A stretch of DNA of 64,000 nucleotides. It comes from a phage. The stretch is taken from the NCBI GenBank assembly GCA_024790105.1, contig GCA_024790105.1_3053.1. One strand, written 5' to 3'. A model generated the notes under the pieces. That model was given only the letters and a program-made list of their open reading frames with translations, searched no databases and was not told where the DNA came from. Position 1 is the first letter of the stretch; each line of letters starts with the position of its first letter. A program made the translations under genes and the position numbers. This document shows, piece by piece, positions 5,599-28,916 of the stretch.

Positions 5599-6285
5599 TT
5601 AAAAATCGTGGGTAGAATCAGCTTCAAGAGCTACTACATAATTCGCGTGTTCACCTTCAAATTTAGCAGCGCCTTGTTTACCTTTTGCCCAAAGCAGAAG
5701 TTTATAATTTCCTGGTTGCATTTTCATATTTGCCATATTGATAATGAAATTAAATGTATTTTCACCATCATAATCACCAAGAGTCAAAGAATATTTAACA
5801 CGGGTAAGAGCAGAATCTTCTACTTTATTAAAACCGTTAATTACGATTTTACCTTCTTTTACCGTGATAGCAATTGTATCAATTTGCAGACCACGAGATA
5901 CACGCAATAGTTGTTGAAGGTCTTCAGCTTTAATTTCAGTAACAACAGATGCTACCGGGAATGGAATTGGTTTATTAGGAGCAACTACTGTACTCGGATC
6001 GGCTGCTGGCCAAAAAATTGTTGAACGAGCATCAGCAATTTTAATATTTCCATCTTCTGACTGGGAAATTTCTGCATCGTCATTAACTAGAGACAGAATA
6101 CCGAGAAAACCGTTCAAATCGTAAATTGCTACATCAAAATCAATAACGTCAGAAATATTTGCTTCCGCATAAGTTGTACCATTAACTGCGCGAGTCATAA
6201 TAAATTGACCAGATTTAAGCATAATGCCAGAGTTAATAGTAGCGAAATTTTTCAAAATATTCAGTGTGTCTTTAGATAATTTCAT
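5599..6285 (-). CDS. 45: Sliding clamp gp45
   Basis: 228 aa, same length as T4 gp45 and sequence matches as recalled. Confidence 0.95.
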   Translation of the reverse strand: MKLSKDTLNILKNFATINSGIMLKSGQFIMTRAVNGTTYAEANISDVIDFDVAIYDLNGFLGILSLVNDDAEISQSEDGNIKIADARSTIFWPAADPSTVVAPNKPIPFPVASVVTEIKAEDLQQLLRVSRGLQIDTIAITVKEGKIVINGFNKVEDSALTRVKYSLTLGDYDGENTFNFIINMANMKMQPGNYKLLLWAKGKQGAAKFEGEHANYVVALEADSTHDF

Positions 6286-7169
6286 TTCAATTTCCTATTT
6301 ACATAATAGTTAGACCAGGACCGTACAGCACCCTGATAAGATTCGTCGTTAAACCCATTAGCTACTGCAATTTTACGAAATTTATTATAACTCGGTTTTC
6401 CGTAAGCATGCCATAAAGATTTTAATTCATCTTCATGTTCAATCCAAGTTCCTCTAGCTTTAGATTTTCTAAATTTTGATTTGAATTCCGGTAAATTATT
6501 TCTAACAGTTGCTTGAATTGAAGCTCTCTGTCTTCTTTCAGCATTATTCCATAATTCTTTTTGAGATTTAGAAATTTTTGATCTTACACTTTCTGAATTC
6601 ATTATATCACTAAACTTTTTAGCATAACTACAATCAAGATATTTCAATTTCATCTTATTTGAGAGTTTAAGCTTTTTCTCATCGGTCCAGTGATTCTTCA
6701 TTGAATTAGATATTTTGTATTTTACCTCAGAACTATGTTTGTAACCTTTACGAATACCGACATACTCAGGCGTAATTTCAGATTGCGAAAGCTTTACAAT
6801 TTTTCCAGTTAAAACATTTTTATATGTTCCATATCCTTTAGCACCAATTAAAGTATTTTCATCCGCGTATGCTTTATTAAAATATTTTATATTACTTTTT
6901 GCTTTAACTTTTAATTGAAAAAATCTTTCCAATTTTCTTGGATCTAATATAGTTTCAGCTAAAATTTTGACGGTATATTTAGTGGTTTTAATAAGCTCAA
7001 AATATTCATCACTATAACTAGATGACACGCTTCCAGTATAAATCTTTCCAGCTGAATCAATTATATTTGTTCCATCGAAAATTGCGTTAATTTTTGAACC
7101 TATATAATAACACGGAAAAATATTTTTAGCTTCCCGCTCTGGAAAGCTAATAAGATATACTAAATTCAT
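6282..7169 (-). CDS. Seg-like homing endonuclease (degenerate GIY-YIG N-terminus, NUMOD3-like repeats)
   Basis: N-terminal VYLI...YYIGS pattern; C-terminal K/R-rich repeats of the S-x-x-K-I-S type; inserted between rpbA and 45 with 4-nt overlaps. Confidence 0.5.
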
Positions 7170-7766: not shown

Positions 7767-7774
7767 TATAAATA
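7767..7774 (+). promoter_or_regulatory. T4 late promoter TATAAATA upstream of plus-strand HNH gene
   Basis: Exact TATAAATA about 33 nt upstream of ATG at 7808. Confidence 0.5.
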
Positions 7775-7807: not shown

Positions 7808-8524
7808 ATGAATTATAAACTAATTTATGAAAAGTTAATATCTAATGCTAAATCTCGAAAACTTGATTGCTATACTGAATCTCATCACATTATACCGCGC
7901 TGTTTAAATGGAAGTGATGATGCTTCAAACTTAGTAGATTTAACACCAGAAGAGCACTATGTAGCTCATCAACTTTTAGTAAAAATTTATCCTTCTGAAC
8001 CAAAATTAGTCTATGCTGCTAACATGATGACAGTTTCTACGAAATACGCTAAACGCAACAATAAAACTTTCGGTTGGATTCGTCGTAAACTCTGGGAAAT
8101 AGAAAAGAACAAAGAATTCTCCCAGGAGACACGAAAGAAAATGTCTGATGCAGTAGCTAATAAAGCAAGACTAACTTGTCCTCATTGCGGTAAGTCTGGA
8201 TTAAGCGGGAATATGAATCGTTGGCATTTTGATAACTGCCCAAATCACCCTAATCCTAAAGTTAGACCACCAATGTCTAAAGAACACAGAAATAATATCT
8301 CAAACGGGCTTAAAGCAATCGTTCTTGAAGAAACATCCTGCGAATTCTGCGGAATGATAGGCAAGAAATGCGTTATCGCAGCGCATAGAAATTTCTGCAA
8401 GAAAAATCCAAATGGACGCAAGAAAACTGAAAAGACTGGTACTTGCGTCCATTGCGGTAAAGTTACCACTTTCGGAAATTTATCAAGGTGGCATAATGAT
8501 AACTGTAAATATAAACCTAGCTAA
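7808..8524 (+). CDS. HNH homing endonuclease with three C-terminal Cys-rich repeats
   Basis: HNH core ESHHIIPRCLNGSDDASNLVDLTPEEHYVAH; three repeats of C-x2-C-G-K...RWH-x-DNC; opposite strand to the surrounding early operon. Confidence 0.75.
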   Translation: MNYKLIYEKLISNAKSRKLDCYTESHHIIPRCLNGSDDASNLVDLTPEEHYVAHQLLVKIYPSEPKLVYAANMMTVSTKYAKRNNKTFGWIRRKLWEIEKNKEFSQETRKKMSDAVANKARLTCPHCGKSGLSGNMNRWHFDNCPNHPNPKVRPPMSKEHRNNISNGLKAIVLEETSCEFCGMIGKKCVIAAHRNFCKKNPNGRKKTEKTGTCVHCGKVTTFGNLSRWHNDNCKYKPS

Positions 8525-10205
8525 TCTTAGCTAAACTAAATCTACCAACTTTTTCCATCTGAATATGCTGACCATATTCTTGTGGGTCATGGTCTTTATG
8601 CGAAATTATGAAGAAGTTGGTATCCTTCAAACCATCTAAAATTTTAGCTACATTTTTAATGCCTTCAGCATCAAATGCACCATCATACACTTCATCAAGA
8701 AATAAACAACTTATTTTAACACCTGAAACTTTTTCAGCAATATCACGCCAAGTAAATAAAAGAGCAATATCAATTCGTGCTTTTTCGCCTTGACTAAATG
8801 AAGCATAACTAAAATCTTCACGACCACGGGATTTAATTGTCTCATTAAATTCTTCATCTAATGTAAACACATAATCCGCTTCCATTATTTTAAGATAATG
8901 GTTAATCTGCTTATTAAATAATGGAATGTACTTTTTAATAATAGCACCTTTAATACCAGAATCTTTGAGCATATCAGTCAAAATTCCTCGGTGGTATTTT
9001 TCCATTACTAAATTAGTTTTTGTCTTAACAATTTTATCAAGTTCTTCTTGAAGCAGTGCTATTTCATCAGCATGGTCAATAAACTCAGAAGATGCTTTTT
9101 CTATAGCTGCTTTAACTTTTTTAGCTTTATCTACCGTCGTGATTAGAGATTGCTTTTTATTGCGAATATCATTTGCCAACGACTGCTGGGTTTTAATATT
9201 ATCTCGGTATTCATCAACAAGAACTTTTAAATTATCACGATGTGTTGAAAGCTGTTCAAACGAATGCGTACATTCAGAAACTTTATCTTTAATTTTAGAA
9301 ACAACTTTATCACCGGAACTTAATTGTGACAGACAGGTTGGACATAATCCGCCTTCGTGATACATATTAATGACTTTATTATACGAGTCAATTTTTGATT
9401 TAATTAAAACTGCTTCTTGACCGATTTTATTAAATGCATCAGTCGGGTCTTCATCCAAAACAATATTAACTAATCTTTCATTAGCTTCTTCTATTTCCGA
9501 TTTTAGCGTTCTAGCTTCTTTTGCCAAATCATCATACATATTTTGTAGACGAGTAAGGTTGTCACCCGTTAATTTTTTCTGGCGTTCAACGTTATCATTA
9601 TATATTTTAATTTGTTGGATAATACTATCTTTTTTAACATCAAGCACTTGGTTTTGTGAATTTAATTCACGTATTAGTGCTTTATTAAGCTTATCCATTT
9701 CAGCTAATGTTCCTACCTCAAGCAGGTCTTCCACAAGCTTTCTTCGCGCAGGGGTCGACAAACCCATGAAAGGGGTATACCCTGCTGTACCAAGGACAAC
9801 AATCTGCTTGAAACTGGCATATGACATTCCGATAAGCTGTTCAAATTCTGCTTGGAAATCTTTACTGCTGGCAGATTCATTAAGACGTGTACCGTTAACG
9901 GTGATTTCGAAAACGTTTGGTTTTTGTCCTCTTTTGATATAGTACTTTTTCTCATCATATTCCATCCACAGTTCAACTAAAAGTTCTTTCTTATTTGTGC
10001 TGTTTATTAATTGACCTTTCTTTACATCACGAAATGGCTTGCCAAAAAGCCCAAATGTGATGGCTTCTAACATAGTAGACTTACCACCGCCATTTCGTCC
10101 AGTAATAAGAGTTTTTTGAACCTTATCTAATTGAATGTCAATCCCATTTTGACCAACTGACATTATATTTTTATATTTTACTCTGTTAAGTTTAAAATTC
10201 TTCAC
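8517..10205 (-). CDS. 46: Recombination exonuclease subunit gp46 (Rad50/SbcC-like)
   Basis: 562 aa; Walker A GRNGGGKST, coiled-coil middle, C-terminal signature and D-loop; synteny. Confidence 0.9.
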   Translation of the reverse strand: MKNFKLNRVKYKNIMSVGQNGIDIQLDKVQKTLITGRNGGGKSTMLEAITFGLFGKPFRDVKKGQLINSTNKKELLVELWMEYDEKKYYIKRGQKPNVFEITVNGTRLNESASSKDFQAEFEQLIGMSYASFKQIVVLGTAGYTPFMGLSTPARRKLVEDLLEVGTLAEMDKLNKALIRELNSQNQVLDVKKDSIIQQIKIYNDNVERQKKLTGDNLTRLQNMYDDLAKEARTLKSEIEEANERLVNIVLDEDPTDAFNKIGQEAVLIKSKIDSYNKVINMYHEGGLCPTCLSQLSSGDKVVSKIKDKVSECTHSFEQLSTHRDNLKVLVDEYRDNIKTQQSLANDIRNKKQSLITTVDKAKKVKAAIEKASSEFIDHADEIALLQEELDKIVKTKTNLVMEKYHRGILTDMLKDSGIKGAIIKKYIPLFNKQINHYLKIMEADYVFTLDEEFNETIKSRGREDFSYASFSQGEKARIDIALLFTWRDIAEKVSGVKISCLFLDEVYDGAFDAEGIKNVAKILDGLKDTNFFIISHKDHDPQEYGQHIQMEKVGRFSLAKIS

Positions 10206-10465
10206 AAAAGATTCCTTTTAATGTATCTTTTAGACCATTCTATCATATCATCATAATCTAAAAAGTATTCATCAAATTCAGCCATGCAAACAACACCTTG
10301 TGCTGTTTTTGATGTGATATAAATTATTCCAACATATCTAGAATCTTCTTCGGTATAATCAATATTTGCTATGAATTCATCGTTAATGTCAAATGTCGAA
10401 AACTTCACAGTATGCATCCTTAATACAAGATACAGCCATATCTCGTAATGATTTGGGTGTGTCAT
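10202..10465 (-). CDS. Hypothetical protein (46.1-like position)
   Basis: 87-aa ORF between 47 and 46; overlaps neighbour in another frame, so the start is uncertain. Confidence 0.4.
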   Translation of the reverse strand: MTHPNHYEIWLYLVLRMHTVKFSTFDINDEFIANIDYTEEDSRYVGIIYITSKTAQGVVCMAEFDEYFLDYDDMIEWSKRYIKRNLL

Positions 10466-13782: not shown

Positions 13783-14001
13783 TTATTTCTCTAATATAAA
13801 ATAAAAATCATCATCTGTTAAATGATACCGATAGTTTAATTCTACACCATTAGATTTAAAAGCGGTATCATACGGATTTTCTGGATCAATATCAATGTCA
13901 AGAGCTAAAACTTCCCTGAGATACATTTTAAGTAAATAGGGAATAGCTTCAACTTCAGGTATTTCTTCCAAGAATCCGGAGAGGTTAATCGTTAGCCTCA
14001 T
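13783..14001 (-). CDS. Hypothetical protein
   Basis: 72-aa ORF immediately downstream of gene 55. Confidence 0.4.
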
Positions 14002-14542
14002 ATAAAAAATCCAAACTAGGAGAATCGTCTACAACACTTTTCTTTTCAGCCCCCGGTGTTCTATAGGTTGATTCTTCGTAATGCGTCATTTTATCGTAGA
14101 TGTCTTGAATAAAAGTTTCATCTACTAACGCAACCATATCGTCGTCACGACTGTCATAGACATTGTGAACGAAGTAACTATATTTCTTTGCAACTTCCTT
14201 ACGTTCTTTTTTAATACGCTGGACGAATGCATTAAAACAAGCTTGAGTTATATATGCATGCGGGTTTTTATATTTCGTTTCATCAAAATTGTGAAGCCCC
14301 TTAATAGAAGCTTCTATACCATCTGCAATCATTTCTTGTTTCCAAGACTGGGTGTATCCTGAAAAGTTGAAACGTTTAGATAAGCCTTCTGCAATAAGCA
14401 TAATGGCTAATCCGATAGTATCATTCTGACGAACTACTTTATTTGGGTCTTTATTATTTGCTAATTCTGTTTTCCAATCAATAATAGCTTGTAAAAGCTC
14501 TTTATTGTTTACGTAATTATATTTAGGCTTAGTTTCTGACAT
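13985..14542 (-). CDS. 55: Late-transcription sigma factor gp55
   Basis: 185 aa from [21 protein letters not shown]; matches T4 gp55 as recalled. Confidence 0.9.
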
Positions 14543-14620
14543 TTTCACCTCTTAGCTCAATTCATAGATCTATTATATCATAATATTTGAAGATCTATCT
14601 TAAAGCATAGAGGATATCAG

Positions 14621-17275: not shown

Positions 17276-17391
17276 ATTTTACCCTTAATTGATTAACCAA
17301 GCATTGATAAGCACTAAACTATATTGGGAATAAAATTCTGGACCAAAAATGAAAAATCATATCATTTATAGTATCCATAATGTAATTCAAT

Positions 17392-17862
17392 TTAATCATG
17401 TTTCCACACCCCATCGGTATTTGACCAAAGTCGCTGATTATCTGATCCTCGCCACAGCTTTTTAGTCGGAAGATTTTTCTCATACTTCCCATCAATAATA
17501 ACATCAACATATTTAAGCATTTCTAGTTGTTTAATATCCTCAAACTTATATCCTGTCCACAACCAAATGCTTTTATTTGGATAAAGATTTTTTACTGTTT
17601 GAACAATGCAATGAATAACATCTCGGTTATCAGGATAGAGAGGGTCTCCTCCAGTTATAGTCAATCCTTCTATATAATCATTATTCAAACATTCAATTAA
17701 TTGTTCCAGTGTTTCACCAGTGAATGGAACGCCATTTCTAGCATTCCATGTTGATTTATTATAACACCCTTCGCATTTATGCAAACAACCAGTAACGAAA
17801 AGAACTGTCCTGCATCCAGGACCATTAACAAAGCAGCACGGGTATATTCTGTCATAATTCAT
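17392..17862 (-). CDS. nrdG: Anaerobic ribonucleotide reductase activating enzyme NrdG (radical SAM)
   Basis: 156 aa; Cys motif C-x3-C-x2-C near N-terminus; T4 length. Confidence 0.9.
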   Translation of the reverse strand: MNYDRIYPCCFVNGPGCRTVLFVTGCLHKCEGCYNKSTWNARNGVPFTGETLEQLIECLNNDYIEGLTITGGDPLYPDNRDVIHCIVQTVKNLYPNKSIWLWTGYKFEDIKQLEMLKYVDVIIDGKYEKNLPTKKLWRGSDNQRLWSNTDGVWKHD

Positions 17863-18691
17863 TTATATATTTCCAATTATAGCCTTCAACACTTTTACGT
17901 TCGCCATTTAAACATTTTAAAATATTTCCTTTGCTAGAAATATTAAAATATTTTGCTGCGTCTGGTATATAATTAAATGTTTTTAAAAGAACACCATCTT
18001 TATATGCGCCAAATAAATTAAGAGTATATTTTTCTCGAAGACGCTGATGTTTCCTTTTCATAACCTCAGGATTTGCATACGCCAACTTCAATGAATTTCT
18101 GTGTTTTTCTTTTACTTCAGGTTTTTGCATTGCTAACTTAGTTAGCCTGGAAATTTTATTTCTAACTTCGTCAGTTTTCATTGCATTTGACAAATTTAAT
18201 AAAGTTTTATTTCTAACTTCAGGTTTTTGCATTGCTAACTTAGTTAGTTCTCTATGTCTTTTTCTAAAATCGTCATCCTTCCATATATTTTTCGATAATT
18301 TTGACATAGAGCGGTGAAATAATTCCTTTTCACTGGAATACAATTTAAAAATTTCATCCAATTCATCCGCATTAAATCTATCGGTATTCGAGTTTATCAT
18401 TCTATGAAAGGCATAACACATTTTACTATTGCTTGTTTTAGCTAAATAGTAATGAGCTAACGCATGGTCATAATATGACAAATTAACAATATTCCATTTA
18501 TCTGTTTTATATTCAGGAAATATAGATTTGGGAAGCACGTGATGTGCTTCCGTTTTTCCTTTTATTTTAGGATTATTATAATTTTTTGTTATCAAATCAA
18601 CATATGACAATAGTAAATCATTATTTTCTTCAAATATTAAAGATAATTTATCATTCACAAAATCGCAAGGATAAAATCTATCATAATTCAT
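17852..18691 (-). CDS. HNH homing endonuclease (MobD-like)
   Basis: HNH-type His motif AHHVLPKS...YYDHALAH; C-terminal NUMOD-like repeats; located between nrdD and nrdG. Confidence 0.7.
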   Translation of the reverse strand: MNYDRFYPCDFVNDKLSLIFEENNDLLLSYVDLITKNYNNPKIKGKTEAHHVLPKSIFPEYKTDKWNIVNLSYYDHALAHYYLAKTSNSKMCYAFHRMINSNTDRFNADELDEIFKLYSSEKELFHRSMSKLSKNIWKDDDFRKRHRELTKLAMQKPEVRNKTLLNLSNAMKTDEVRNKISRLTKLAMQKPEVKEKHRNSLKLAYANPEVMKRKHQRLREKYTLNLFGAYKDGVLLKTFNYIPDAAKYFNISSKGNILKCLNGERKSVEGYNWKYINEL

Positions 18692-18703
18692 TGGTGTTTA
18701 ACC

Positions 18704-20004
18704 CTATGCATGTTTTACTCGTTTTACCATTTCTTTCATTTTACCTAAATTCCATGGGACAACGCTAGGAGTTCCAAGATATCCGCATGTTCTTCTTATT
18801 GTGTTCATCTTTTTAGGATCAGTTTCTCCACAAATAGAACAAACAAATCCGTTTTCAGTAGGAGTCATTTCATGGGTACTTCCACATGTAAAACATTTAT
18901 CTACTGGCATGTTAACACCAAAATAATCTAAATGTTGTACAGCATAATCCCATACAGCCTCAAGACCTTTTAGGTTATTTTTCATATCAGGAAGTTCAAC
19001 ATAAGAAATGTGACCACCTGTCGCAATGAAATGATATGGCGCTTCACGAGAAATCTTTTCAAACGGAGTAATATTTTCTTCTACTGAAACATGGAAACTG
19101 TTAGTGTACCAGCCTTTATCGGTAACATCCTTTACACTTCCATATTTTTCTGTATCAAGTTTACAGAAGCGATAACAAAGGTTTTCAGCAGGAGTCGAAT
19201 ATAAACTAAAAGCAAATCCAGTTCTTTCAGTCCACTGTTTAAGATGAGCATTCATTTTAGTTAAAATTTCCTGTCCAATATCACGACCGACAAGAATATT
19301 CAATTCATGAATACCAATGTATCCTAGGGACACTGAACTTCTACCATTTTTAAATAACTCAATTATATCGTCATCAGGTTTAAGACGAACCCCGAATGCA
19401 CCTTCTTGGTAAAGAATAGGAGCAACAGTCGCTTTAACTCCTTTTAAGGAACTAATTCTACACATCAAAGCTTCAAAACACAGATCCATTCGTTCATTGA
19501 ATAATTCAGTAAATTTCTGTTCATTGAACTGTGTTCCAATATAAGAATCTAACGCAATACGAGGAAGATTCAGTGTTACAACACCAAGATTATTACGTCC
19601 ATCAAGAATTTCATTACCAGTCGAATCTTTCCATACGCTCAAGAAACTACGGCAACCCATTGGAGAAACAGGAACAGATGAACCAGTGATAGCTTTATTG
19701 TTCTTAGCTGAAATAATATCAGGATACATCCTTTTGCTTGCACACTCTAGAGCAAGCTGTTTAATATCATAGTTCGGATCGTCTTTGTAAAGATTAACGC
19801 CTTCTTCGACGAACATAACAAGCTTAGGGAAAATAGGAGTTATCCCATCACGACCGAGACCTTTAATACGATTTTTCAGAATTGCTTTCTGAATCATTCG
19901 TTCAGTCCAGTCAGTTCCTGTACCAAATGTAATTGTTACAAAAGGTGTTTGTCCGTTTGAACTGAAAAGTGTATTTACTTCATCATTATATTCAGCATGA
20001 GTCG
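18704..20004 (-). CDS. nrdD: Anaerobic ribonucleotide reductase NrdD, exon 2 (approximate 5' boundary)
   Basis: C-terminal Cys-rich zinc site and glycyl radical region; 443-aa frame; exon boundary not determined. Confidence 0.8.
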
Positions 20005-21049
20005 CAAATTCATGCCCGTTTATATGAAACGACAAAATTTGGATAGTCCATAGATATGCAACGTTCTTTTATAGTGCTAGGATGAAAATTTAGCGCTTTA
20101 GCTGCTTCTATATAAGACGTATACTTAATACCGTCAACAACCACATATTCAGGAACTTTATGAATAGTAGTCTTAATACTCAAAACAAGAGGATGAGTTT
20201 CGACTTCACTTTCAGTGCAATTTAAATATTCCGCTGCTTTTTTAAAACTTCTAAAAGTTTTATTTTTAAGCTTTATCGATACTTGTTTTTTACTTTTTCG
20301 ACTATTGATATTATTTTGCACATGTTCCTTAGATCTTCTGTTTTTAGCATAATATTCAGCCACAGAAGATTTTATATTGTTTTTATGAGATTCGGATAAC
20401 ACTTTACCCTTATGAGCATCTCTTAATTTTTGAATATGTTCTTCAGTATCCGGATGCTTATAAAACTTTTTACCGCCTATGGATTTATTTAAACATTTTT
20501 TGCTATAAAAATATTTACGTATGACCTCTTCTTCATGTTTTAATGCATCTTTATAACTATCAAATGTTTTTAAAATTATCCATTTAGTAGGTGTATCAGT
20601 TTTTAAGCGTTCATTTATATACTTAGATGACGTTGTGTAAGTTTTCCAGTTTGTGGGCTTGTTTTTAACTGTTCTAAATTTTTTATAACCGATATAAATG
20701 TCGCCATTAGAAAACTTAACTAAGTATGTAAATGCGTCTTTATCTTTTATTTTAGTACAACGTCTTTTTATCCATTTCATTGTTTCACCTCGTATTCATA
20801 AGATAATCTTATTTATACAAGATGACTGCTGCATGTCGCCATGCAGATTAGACTATATCTTCATCTTTCGATGCCGGCCGTTTCGAATAGCATTAGCTTC
20901 TATTCTACACCGCTACATTCATCACGGTTAGTCGTTAGGCATTTAGTTCAAAAGAACATTTAGCACGGGATTGTCTACTAGAGAGGTTCCCCGTTTAGAC
21001 CGGTTTTACATGAGCCTGAATTAAATTAACTCATACGCCTGGAATGCAT
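20005..21049 (-). mobile_element. Group I self-splicing intron in nrdD (approximate boundaries) carrying a homing endonuclease ORF
   Basis: NrdD reading frame is split into 181-aa and 443-aa pieces separated by about 1 kb containing a GIY-YIG ORF and a GC-rich structured segment at 20780-21020; matches T4 nrdD intron arrangement. Confidence 0.75.
20010..20780 (-). CDS. Intron-encoded GIY-YIG homing endonuclease (I-TevII-like)
   Basis: 256 aa; N-terminal GDIYIGY motif; inside nrdD intron; TATAAATA late promoter on minus strand at 20810-20817. Confidence 0.8.
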   Translation of the reverse strand: MKWIKRRCTKIKDKDAFTYLVKFSNGDIYIGYKKFRTVKNKPTNWKTYTTSSKYINERLKTDTPTKWIILKTFDSYKDALKHEEEVIRKYFYSKKCLNKSIGGKKFYKHPDTEEHIQKLRDAHKGKVLSESHKNNIKSSVAEYYAKNRRSKEHVQNNINSRKSKKQVSIKLKNKTFRSFKKAAEYLNCTESEVETHPLVLSIKTTIHKVPEYVVVDGIKYTSYIEAAKALNFHPSTIKERCISMDYPNFVVSYKRA

Positions 21050-21566
21050 CGTATACGTCTTTTTCTGTTTTAGATTGAGCATAATTCAACGCATCAGCGA
21101 TTTGCCATTTTTCTGCATCTTCAATATGTTTTGCATAGGTGCGTTTAACATAAGGAGAAAGTACTTTATCTACATTAGCAAAAGTCGTTCCGCCGTATTG
21201 GTGAGAAGCAACCTGTGCAGTAATTTGCGCCATAATTGCAGTAGCAACGCCAATTGATTTAGGAGTTTCAATCTGCGCATTACCAAGCTTAAATCCGTTC
21301 TCAAGCATTCCTTTTAAATCTACTAAACAGCAATTAGTAAAAGGAAGAGCAGGGGAATAATCAATATCGTGCACGTGAATAATTCCGCTTTCATGCGCTT
21401 TCATAATAAAAGACGGGACCATATTTTTGGCAATGTGTTTAGACACAATACCAGCCATAAGGTCCCGTTGAGTTGGAAAAACACGAGAATCTTTATTAGC
21501 ATTCTCGTTTAAAAGGTCTTTATTAGTTTTATGAATCAATCCTTCAATTTCTTTTTCAATTGTCAT
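21050..21566 (-). CDS. nrdD: Anaerobic ribonucleotide reductase NrdD, exon 1 (approximate 3' boundary)
   Basis: N-terminal NrdD segment; ORF runs into the intron until stop at 21021. Confidence 0.8.
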
Positions 21567-22036
21567 TTTAAACTCTTTCTAAGCTGCTTCTTGAATGAAG
21601 CTATTAATTGTGTTTTGGTGTCAGATTCATTATATTCAAATCCTCTTTGAAGCATCTCGGCCATCATTTCCTCTTTTCCTAAACGAGAAAATTCCTTTGA
21701 TTTATCTCCAACAAAGTTAGGGTGAATATTATTTTGGGTGTAATCGGATTTTAAATAAGTAAGTAAATTTTCTAACCATTCAAGATAATCAACACCTTGT
21801 CCCTTTAAGCCAGAACGATTAAATTTATGCTTCATTTGACCTTCTGCGGCATTGCATAGATTACAAAGCAATCCACGTACCTTTCCTGCTTTTGGTCCAT
21901 TTAATTCATGGTCATGATCAAGATGATTAGCTTGAACATCAGGATTTAGTTCTCGTTGGCAAATTAAGCATTTACCATTTTGTGCATCATAAAATTTCTG
22001 TTTTTCTTCTTTATATAATTTGCCAGTCAATAACAT
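21563..22036 (-). CDS. 49: Endonuclease VII (Holliday junction resolvase) gp49
   Basis: 157 aa, T4 length; zinc-binding C-x2-C ... C-x2-C and HNH-like core. Confidence 0.9.
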   Translation of the reverse strand: MLLTGKLYKEEKQKFYDAQNGKCLICQRELNPDVQANHLDHDHELNGPKAGKVRGLLCNLCNAAEGQMKHKFNRSGLKGQGVDYLEWLENLLTYLKSDYTQNNIHPNFVGDKSKEFSRLGKEEMMAEMLQRGFEYNESDTKTQLIASFKKQLRKSLK

Positions 22037-28727: not shown

Positions 28728-28916
28728 TTAACTACTCCACCTAATCATTTCAAGATATTGAACTAACTTAGCTTTAGATTTATCCAAATCCTTTTTAGCT
28801 GCTTCTATACCGTCGTATGAATATCCTTCACAATGCTCAACTGCTAATTGATATGAATCTATTTCAATATCACGTGCTAATTTAATGATTTTTTCAAACT
28901 GTTCGCATGTTAGCAT
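28728..28916 (-). CDS. Hypothetical small protein
   Basis: 62-aa ORF. Confidence 0.35.
   Translation of the reverse strand: MLTCEQFEKIIKLARDIEIDSYQLAVEHCEGYSYDGIEAAKKDLDKSKAKLVQYLEMIRWSS

Follow-up and report, generated by a model that had tools for sequence, protein, structure and literature searches.

Why does an open reading frame (ORF) for an HNH-type endonuclease open with nearly the same letters as nrdG, the gene that follows it? The question is raised by a stretch of 64,000 nucleotides of phage DNA (GenBank assembly GCA_024790105.1, contig GCA_024790105.1_3053.1), which was analysed at its full length and is referred to here as the window. On the minus strand, nrdG starts ATGAATTATGACAGAATATACCCGTGCTGC at position 17862, and the endonuclease ORF immediately upstream of it starts ATGAATTATGATAGATTTTATCCTTGCGAT at 18691. 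A first-pass annotation had noticed that the two starts are near-identical over about 30 nucleotides (nt) and had read this as the footprint of an insertion at the 5' end of nrdG. Our comparisons make it likely that this ORF encodes a free-standing HNH homing endonuclease and is lodged in nrdG, borrowing the nrdG start and returning a replacement 5' end to its host gene. Over positions 17300-19200 the nearest database relatives of the window are Tequatrovirus phages such as Yersinia phage PST (97% identity), and PST and others annotate the same ORF of 279 residues as 'mobC' or 'homing endonuclease'. The gene order on the minus strand around nrdG is the T-even order, as judged from the ORF list and the T4 annotation. 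The window is not T4 itself; that candidate was ruled out, since T4 carries a different MobC of 210 residues at the same position.

The near-identity of the two starts was found as described, and it proved to be longer than the 30 nt first reported. A repeat search returned a direct repeat of 41 nt with 78% identity (17823-17863 versus 18652-18692) at a spacing of 829, spanning codons 1-13 of both nrdG (MNYDRIYPCCFVN) and the endonuclease ORF (MNYDRFYPCDFVN). Over the first 42 nt the two genes match at 32 positions. By comparison, the other 129 ATG-started ORFs of the window match the nrdG start at 14.4 +/- 2.9 positions, with a maximum of 23, and none of 100 shuffles of the 1.7-kb region gave a 41-mer pair with at least 32 matches (maximum 29). 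The similarity is thus specific to this pair of genes and is not a generic start context.

The state of the nrdD-nrdG junction differs among related phages. In RB32 the site is empty, nrdD and nrdG overlapping directly as ATGA; the GIY-YIG gene segH occupies it in T6 and HY03 and a T4-type mobC in T4 and SHFML-11, and PST and 21 other enterobacterial-phage records carry the endonuclease ORF of the window. Besides RB32, nrdD directly abuts nrdG in the IMG/VR contigs L018-L025 and L037. The empty-site nrdG begins ATGAATTATGATAGATTTTATCCTTGCGATTTTGTGAATG, preceded by CATGCATAGGGTTAAACACCA, and its product starts MNYDRFYPCDF in RB32 and in seven of eight IMG/VR empty-site contigs, L037, like L020, being of the I/D type. 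The nrdG start of contig L018 is identical at 40 of 40 nt to the start of the window's endonuclease ORF (the left copy of the repeat), and the 21-nt leader is identical too; RB32 nrdG matches the left copy except at nt 34 and 36. Beyond nt 40 the sequences part, the empty site reading GGCCCTGG as nrdG and the window reading ATAAATTA as endonuclease. Subtraction of 829 nt from the occupied locus yields the empty site, 829 being also the spacing of the repeat, and nrdG is of equal length in the window and in empty-site phages.

This alignment places the endonuclease gene inside nrdG, as an insertion after nt 40 (codon 14) and not between nrdD and nrdG. The cassette itself lacks a start: the endonuclease is fused in frame to the ribosome-binding region, ATG and first 13 codons of the resident nrdG, and nrdG is rebuilt from an imported 5' end (the right copy), with MNYDRIYPCC replacing MNYDRFYPCD. 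The rebuilt nrdG begins before the endonuclease ORF is finished: from its ATG it is 11 nt to the end of the endonuclease stop codon, a TGA that falls within nrdG codons 3-4. Since the left copy is identical, together with its 21-nt leader, to empty-site nrdG, it is taken to be the resident one. The proposed footprint of an insertion at the nrdG 5' end therefore stands, with its polarity reversed: the first-pass annotation had the endonuclease gene carrying a copy of its neighbour's start, whereas the endonuclease-side copy is the original resident start and it is the nrdG-side copy that travels. Related phages that lack the endonuclease but still show the duplication, which by the same annotation would have spoken against this footprint, were not seen in the junction comparison; phages without the ORF carry a single copy.

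Klebsiella phages that carry the cassette distinguish the two copies in the same way. The endonuclease of Klebsiella phage Roth19 is 86% identical in amino-acid sequence to that of the window, and another Klebsiella carrier, UTI-K1, is classified as Jiaodavirus. In Roth19, nt 1-40 of the left copy (MNFDRIYPSDFVN) are identical to nrdG in L035 and L044, two Klebsiella-type contigs without the cassette, and the right copy reads MNYDRIYPCCFVN, of the CC type as in the window. Because the local allele stands on the left and the CC type on the right, the left copy is again the resident and the right copy the mobile one. The discriminating sites of Roth19 nrdG are of window type at nt 8-29 (six sites) and of Klebsiella type from nt 36 onward. 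The cassette borders in Roth19 accordingly map to a position after nrdG nt 40 on the left and between nt 29 and 36 on the right, and a shared TTTGTKAATG bounds the cassette ends. Nucleotide identity between the window and Roth19 is 84.6% in the endonuclease gene and 68.4% in nrdG, and the ratio of nonsynonymous to synonymous divergence (dN/dS) of the endonuclease is 0.08 at a dS of about 0.9. These values indicate that the cassette moved between phage genera and that the endonuclease protein is under purifying selection. In all, the cassette junction occurs in 32 records (22 enterobacterial and 10 Klebsiella phages) among the roughly 800-900 that have the locus, and nrdD abuts nrdG directly in 557; in IMG/VR no copy of this particular endonuclease gene was found. 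The distribution of the cassette thus looks patchy at one precise site, with an intact empty site among close relatives.

Nine of the 40 positions separate the left copy from the right, and eight of these differences fall within the 19 nt from nt 12 to nt 30, a recoded stretch that we call the CC patch. It brings the amino-acid replacements F6I and D10C, the latter needing three base changes (GAT to TGC). Tequatrovirus nrdG otherwise varies by a few percent, and the patch stands out as a discrete hyper-divergent block; Asp10 is present in every cassette-free T4-like nrdG that was read, distant ones included. All five carrier genomes read (the window, PST, TB004, Ec_MI-02 and Roth19) are of the CC type, and the synonymous differences among them indicate a maintained CC peptide. 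Among the 557 empty junctions the patch is present in only two, those of U5 (L047) and Shigella phage ESh24 (L048), at locus positions 651-700. We infer that the CC patch is a cleavage-resistant allele linked to occupancy of the nrdG site, and U5 and ESh24 are candidates for precise loss of the cassette by recombination between the copies, or for naturally resistant alleles. Short hyper-divergent patches at the 5' ends of T4-like phage genes can, on this evidence, be footprints of such cassettes. Directly 3' of the insertion point lies a palindrome (Table 1) whose arms come in two haplotypes, GGT..ACx and GGC..GTC, that for the most part co-vary from phage to phage, U5 and ESh24 being mixed; it could form an RNA hairpin or be part of the endonuclease site.

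The same layout was seen at two other loci. In CM8, the endonuclease gene opens with gene 46 sequence, namely its 40-nt leader and first 18 nt (VKNFKL), in the very form that the window has; the first six gene 46 codons are thus joined to the cassette, which also supplies a recoded gene 46 start, at which the gene restarts (ATGAAATCATTTAAACTT). Positions 10146-10245 of the window (gene 46 start at 10205, minus strand) are the intact empty site for this CM8-type HNH cassette. In heyday (Kuttervirus, Ackermannviridae) an endonuclease homologue lies between terS and terL. It opens with the terL leader and the first 15 nt of terL (MAYQK), both in the form known from cassette-free rabagast, and terL restarts with the allele of cassette-free Se-B, overlapping the endonuclease ORF by 11 nt as at nrdG. 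When set against cassette-free relatives, the window, PST, Roth19, CM8 and heyday all have the resident-type copy outside and the foreign-type copy joined to the gene body. The paralogous cassettes share one layout at three loci (nrdG, gene 46 and terL) in two phage families. A broader proposal, which we put forward tentatively and at slightly less than even chances, is that the PHROG 655-type HNH subfamily spreads as start-less cassettes that enter essential genes a few codons from their beginning, capture the ribosome-binding site and start codon, and deliver recoded, cleavage-resistant 5' ends.

The MNYDRIY start of T4 MobC was considered as a second example and dropped, as MNYxxIY is the native start of its subfamily. 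The first 17 nt of T4 mobC (ATGAATTATGACAGAAT) equal the CC-type nrdG start, both in T4 (L006, 4407-5039) and in SHFML-11 (L051, 1400-2032), and a natural likeness of the N-termini of NrdG and of T4-MobC-type HNH proteins may have helped recombination at the nrdG site.

The window's protein matched PHROG 655 'homing endonuclease' (E-value 5.3e-37) and PHROG 12434 'HNH endonuclease' (E-value 6.6e-15). An HNH motif, with catalytic His, Asn and His/His residues and a beta-hairpin followed by a helix, is present in it, and the HH...N...H...H residues are invariant. The Pfam HNH models gave no match to this protein, NCBIfam gave nothing relevant and the PDB held no sequence relative; below the cut-off, residues 235-272 scored 21.1 bits with I-HmuI_NUMOD-like (cut-off 27) and 17.3 with NUMOD1 (cut-off 22.8). 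The first-pass label 'MobD-like' holds only loosely. T4 MobD is 32% identical over residues 35-214 (tblastn, E-value 4e-8), which makes it a paralogue and not an orthologue; it has an MNYTKVY start of its own, and the captured-start layout was not seen in it. T4 MobC was rejected as an orthologue as well, because BLASTP aligns residues 42-101 only (38% identity, pairwise E-value 1e-7); the two proteins, of 279 and 210 residues, align poorly overall. The database label 'mobC' is positional and does not denote an orthologue.

Between the catalytic core and the C-terminal region lies an array of degenerate helical modules (Table 1) with a period of 51 nt, in which LTKLAMQKPEV is present twice. 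No profile matched the 17-residue modules at residues 125-216, the predicted model is all-helical over them, and the array is presumed to be a DNA-binding region. An internal direct repeat of 23 bp had been pointed out here earlier; it is real and larger, being exact over 32 nt (18114-18145 and 18216-18247) at an offset of 102, and its second coordinate had been one base out. A public variant of 242 residues, P0003, lacks residues 149-185 (37 residues), which span the first repeat unit of 34 residues (102 nt). This suggests that recombination between the exact 32-nt repeats may change the number of putative DNA-binding modules. The loss agrees with the reported tendency of endonuclease DNA-binding repeats to recombine (PMC10448857).

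These observations can be assembled into a scheme for how the cassette is expressed and spread. The endonuclease would be translated from the captured nrdG start, in PST-type genomes with coupling to nrdD through the ATGA overlap, and nrdG would be translated by termination-reinitiation at the 11-nt overlap. The enzyme would cut cassette-free nrdG near nt 30-50, in the FVNGPG-coding stretch conserved across phage genera, and double-strand-break repair from a cassette-carrying genome would copy the cassette in. Carriers would be immune because their left copy lacks the downstream half-site and because the recoding of their right copy, with TGC in place of GAT at codon 10 among its changes, lies just upstream of the junction. 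The intact NrdG of 156 residues and the reading frame lead us to infer that the imported nrdG 5' end is the expressed one. The duplicated start may also mark the homing site, as had been suggested at the outset: in the transfer between genera both exchange points lie about 0-12 nt from the junction, which fits a break at the junction.

Several points weigh against this scheme. The window has a 12-nt spacer and no obvious Shine-Dalgarno sequence ahead of the captured ATG, and the ATGA overlap with nrdD is lost, so translation from that ATG is less certain in the window than in PST. Standard double-strand-break repair does not explain the first fusion of left copy and cassette. Among 26 more distant members of the family in IMG/VR there was no convincing further case of the layout, the best matching at 14 of 24 nt. 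Cleavage, homing or expression data for the window's protein were not found in the literature, and a review of T4 phages lists the mobC target as unknown (PMC2988022). In addition, the CC allele is not exclusive to the cassette: it occurs in U5 and ESh24, behind segH in T6 and behind the T4-type mobC in SHFML-11, and selection by another endonuclease, or nothing more than ordinary allelic variation, could account for the CC type. Finally, characterised free-standing phage endonucleases such as SegG are reported to be able to cut far from their insertion site, and the junction need not, therefore, be the cleavage site.

Distant cutting is the main rival to junction cleavage. In this account the 5' duplication would be an expression or packaging device only, with no mark of the homing site, and CC would be an ordinary or otherwise-selected allele. 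It would accommodate the two CC empty sites and the CC alleles of T6 and SHFML-11. It would also accommodate the finding that the right copy is unchanged from nt 31 except for the synonymous nt 36, which means that a site centred on the junction is largely regenerated. What it leaves unaccounted for is that both exchange points between genera lie so near the junction and that the recoding stands 10-28 nt upstream of the nrdG junction and likewise just upstream at gene 46 and terL. On balance we think distant cutting unlikely, at something like one chance among several. An independent tandem duplication of the nrdG 5' end, with the endonuclease landing later between the copies and the right copy not being mobile, would give an identical end state in any single genome. 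It is improbable, given that two genera share the CC right copy while the left copy is the local allele in each, that no genome with two copies and no endonuclease was seen, and that the layout recurs at gene 46 and terL.

The shared start might instead be the enzyme family's own N-terminus, its likeness to NrdG arising by coincidence or convergence. T4 MobC, the true one, begins MNYDRIY and aligns from residue 1 with another HNH ORF of the window, MNYKLIYEKLISNA at 7808-8524 (37% identity, E-value 1e-22), and T4 MobD begins in a similar manner. The closest paralogues of the enzyme studied here (the CM8 gene between 47 and 46, the VR7 gene between 49.3 and 49.1, and P0004-P0008) nevertheless have unrelated N-termini, and their homology to the window's protein begins at residues 14-29, so that the first 13 residues are to be assigned to NrdG and not to the enzyme family. 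The first 40 nt and the leader, moreover, are the local nrdG allele in two genera, and we give coincidence or convergence very little credence. Still less can be said for a chance similarity or a generic AT-rich start context. Both ORFs are indeed AT-rich and begin with ATG, yet neither the 129 other ORF starts nor the 100 shuffles approach the observed match, and the comparative data agree; the probability of this account is close to nil. We therefore retain the homing endonuclease cassette, with its borrowed start and returned 5' end, as the likely explanation of the locus, whose features are collected in Table 1.

Table 1. Features at and around the nrdD-nrdG junction, in positions of the 64,000-nt window
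Feature	Position	Strand	Basis
gp55	13985-14548	minus	
nrdG, anaerobic ribonucleotide reductase activase, 156 residues, intact	17392-17862	minus	Pfam Fer4_12 (E-value 3e-48) and Radical_SAM
Palindrome GTCCTG-GATG-CAGGAC, nrdG nt 41-56 (GPGCR), codons 14-19, directly 3' of the insertion point	17807-17822	minus	terminator-like scan
Right copy: putative replacement nrdG start and nt 1-40 (MNYDRIYPCCFVN)	17823-17862	minus	
Inserted cassette, 829 nt: endonuclease codons 14-279 and putative replacement nrdG 5' end	17823-18651	minus	empty-site comparison
Recoded CC patch, nrdG nt 12-30	17833-17851	minus	comparison of left and right copies
Overlap of endonuclease ORF and nrdG, 11 nt (ATGAATTATGA)	17852-17862	minus	
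Free-standing HNH homing endonuclease ORF, 279 residues	17852-18691	minus	PHROG matches, annotation in PST and others, dN/dS
Array of four to five degenerate 17-residue helical modules, residues 125-216	18044-18319	minus	
HNH catalytic core, residues 45-84 (G-KTEAHHVLPKSIFPE...N...H...H)	18440-18559	minus	
Left copy: resident nrdG start codon and nt 1-40, endonuclease codons 1-13 (MNYDRFYPCDFVN)	18652-18691	minus	
Spacer, 12 nt (GGTTAAACACCA), remnant of B-type nrdD tail	18692-18703	minus	junction alignment
Last 82 nt of nrdD, hyper-divergent A-type tail allele	18704-18785	minus	
nrdD second exon, last residues ...KRVKHA*, stop codon TAG	18704-20035	minus	ORF list and T4 synteny
I-TevII-like ORF	20010-20780	minus	
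nrdD exon 1, then gene 49	21563-22036 (gene 49)	minus	

The sequence ahead of the captured start is itself mosaic. B-type nrdD tails overlap the next start codon as ATGA in PST, RB32 and T4. The A-type tail of the window is identical at 82 of 82 positions to that of HY03, at 79 of 81 to that of T6 and at 47 of 74 to those of PST and RB32, whereas the nrdD sequence flanking it is about 97% identical to HY03, PST and RB32 alike. Since a 12-nt B-type remnant follows the A-type tail, with the join at CATGCATAGG, nrdD ends at TAG and the overlap with the next ORF is lost. The combination of A-type left flank and the window's endonuclease was found in no database phage; in 22 of 22 database phages with this endonuclease the corresponding length is 1884-1885 nt, as against 1901 in the window, the extra 16-17 nt being absent. 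In SHFML-11, ELT1 and others a T4-type mobC stands behind the A-type tail and its spacer, and an earlier idea that this tail is specific to segH was dropped on account of SHFML-11.

Further upstream, nrdD is interrupted as in T4, and the I-TevII-like ORF matches SegE_GIY-YIG (E-value 6e-6) and NUMOD1; Rfam reported no group I intron at its gathering threshold in the region 20010-21020. The sequence TATAAATA, the T4 late-promoter consensus, is present at 20810-20817, upstream of the I-TevII-like ORF. In a promoter scan, sites were no more frequent than in shuffles, and no TATAAATA late promoter was found near the endonuclease ORF.

Other parts of the window hold endonuclease-related features of their own. 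A 238-residue HNH ORF (MNYKLIYEKLISNAK..., with repeated Cys/His motifs) lies at 7808-8524 on the plus strand, with the genes beside it on the other strand; 8 nt of it are shared with the 3' end of gene 46, and from residue 1 its product is 37% identical to T4 MobC. The late-promoter consensus occurs 34 nt upstream of the ORF, at 7767-7774. At 6282-7169 (minus strand) an ORF of 295 residues combines a GIY-YIG-like N-terminus (YLISF...CYYIGSK) with lysine/serine-rich repeat modules; it gave no significant Pfam match and is probably another Seg-type endonuclease. At about 28733-28735 the window is without some 1.7 kb that in T4 comprise mobD.2a, mobD.2, mobD.1 and mobD, and the end of mobD.3 is joined directly to nrdC.11. 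With respect to T4 mobD and the genes around it, this point is thus an empty site.

Among systems already described, the closest kind appears to be the fungal mitochondrial elements known as mORFs, reported in Allomyces macrogynus atp6 and in Glomus atp6, atp9, cox2 and nad3 (Beaudet et al. 2013, PMC3630166). There too an endonuclease ORF within a coding region carries a foreign, diverged gene end that is expressed, and the native end is left as a duplicate. In the fungi, however, it is the 3' (C-terminal) end that the element replaces, and what remains of the native end is dead, whereas in the phage the 5' end is replaced and the remnant is reused as the start of the endonuclease; by this analogy the nrdG cassette is the mirror image of the fungal case at the 5' end. 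The enzymes also differ, being LAGLIDADG or GIY-YIG proteins of organelles in the one case and an HNH protein of a phage in the other. A Stemphylium mitogenome that was considered as a further analogue was not relevant.

The free-standing endonucleases found in T-even phages (SegF, SegG and MobE; PMC2988022, PMC2790892) are likewise promoter-less cassettes between or against conserved genes, often those of ribonucleotide reductase. They overlap neighbouring ORFs, are patchy in distribution, and differences in target-gene sequence are believed to protect their carriers. Together with 'intronless homing' they supply the frame for the mechanism (PMC2988022). They differ in lying between genes, with starts of their own or with overlaps onto the upstream ORF. 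Two HNH Mob-type insertions in essential genes of nucleotide metabolism or replication, mobE in nrdA of Aeromonas phage Aeh1 (PMC3045599) and the mobA/gene 60 cassette in the topoisomerase gene (bioRxiv 10.1101/2022.08.31.505936), resemble the present case in that extra cassette sequence preserves host function; in those the host gene is in two pieces that reassemble, whereas nrdG of the window is kept whole by the 13 duplicated codons. T4 MobC occupies the same position as the window's endonuclease, ends ...WKYKDEL* on a TGA in nrdG codons 3-4 and starts MNYDRIY, but it belongs to another HNH subfamily, is alike only over a core of 60 residues (38%) and has an N-terminus native to its family. 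SegH shares the nrdD/nrdG junction and differs in being a GIY-YIG enzyme encoded entirely upstream of the nrdG start codon and lacking a left copy. Sandegren et al. 2005 is the work cited for T4 MobC and SegH at this junction, and it predates the PST-type genomes. In the literature consulted, which did not cover that paper (SegH, Hef), we did not find described an endonuclease joined in frame to the first codons of the gene downstream of it and carrying a replacement 5' end for that gene.

The layout bears on how such enzymes are annotated and how their targets are sought. The first 13 residues of the annotated 'homing endonuclease' are NrdG residues. Targets of T-even Mob-type endonucleases are mostly undetermined, that of mobC included, as listed in the 2010 review already cited. 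If the captured start is the break point and the recoded patch the recognition sequence, the boundary between left and right copies would read out the cleavage site and the patch would read out the recognition sequence, and targets at nrdG, gene 46 and terL would be predictable from sequence. The layout also shows one way in which an essential coding region can house, with neither an intron nor an intein, a selfish gene that brings no promoter, no ribosome-binding site and no start codon.

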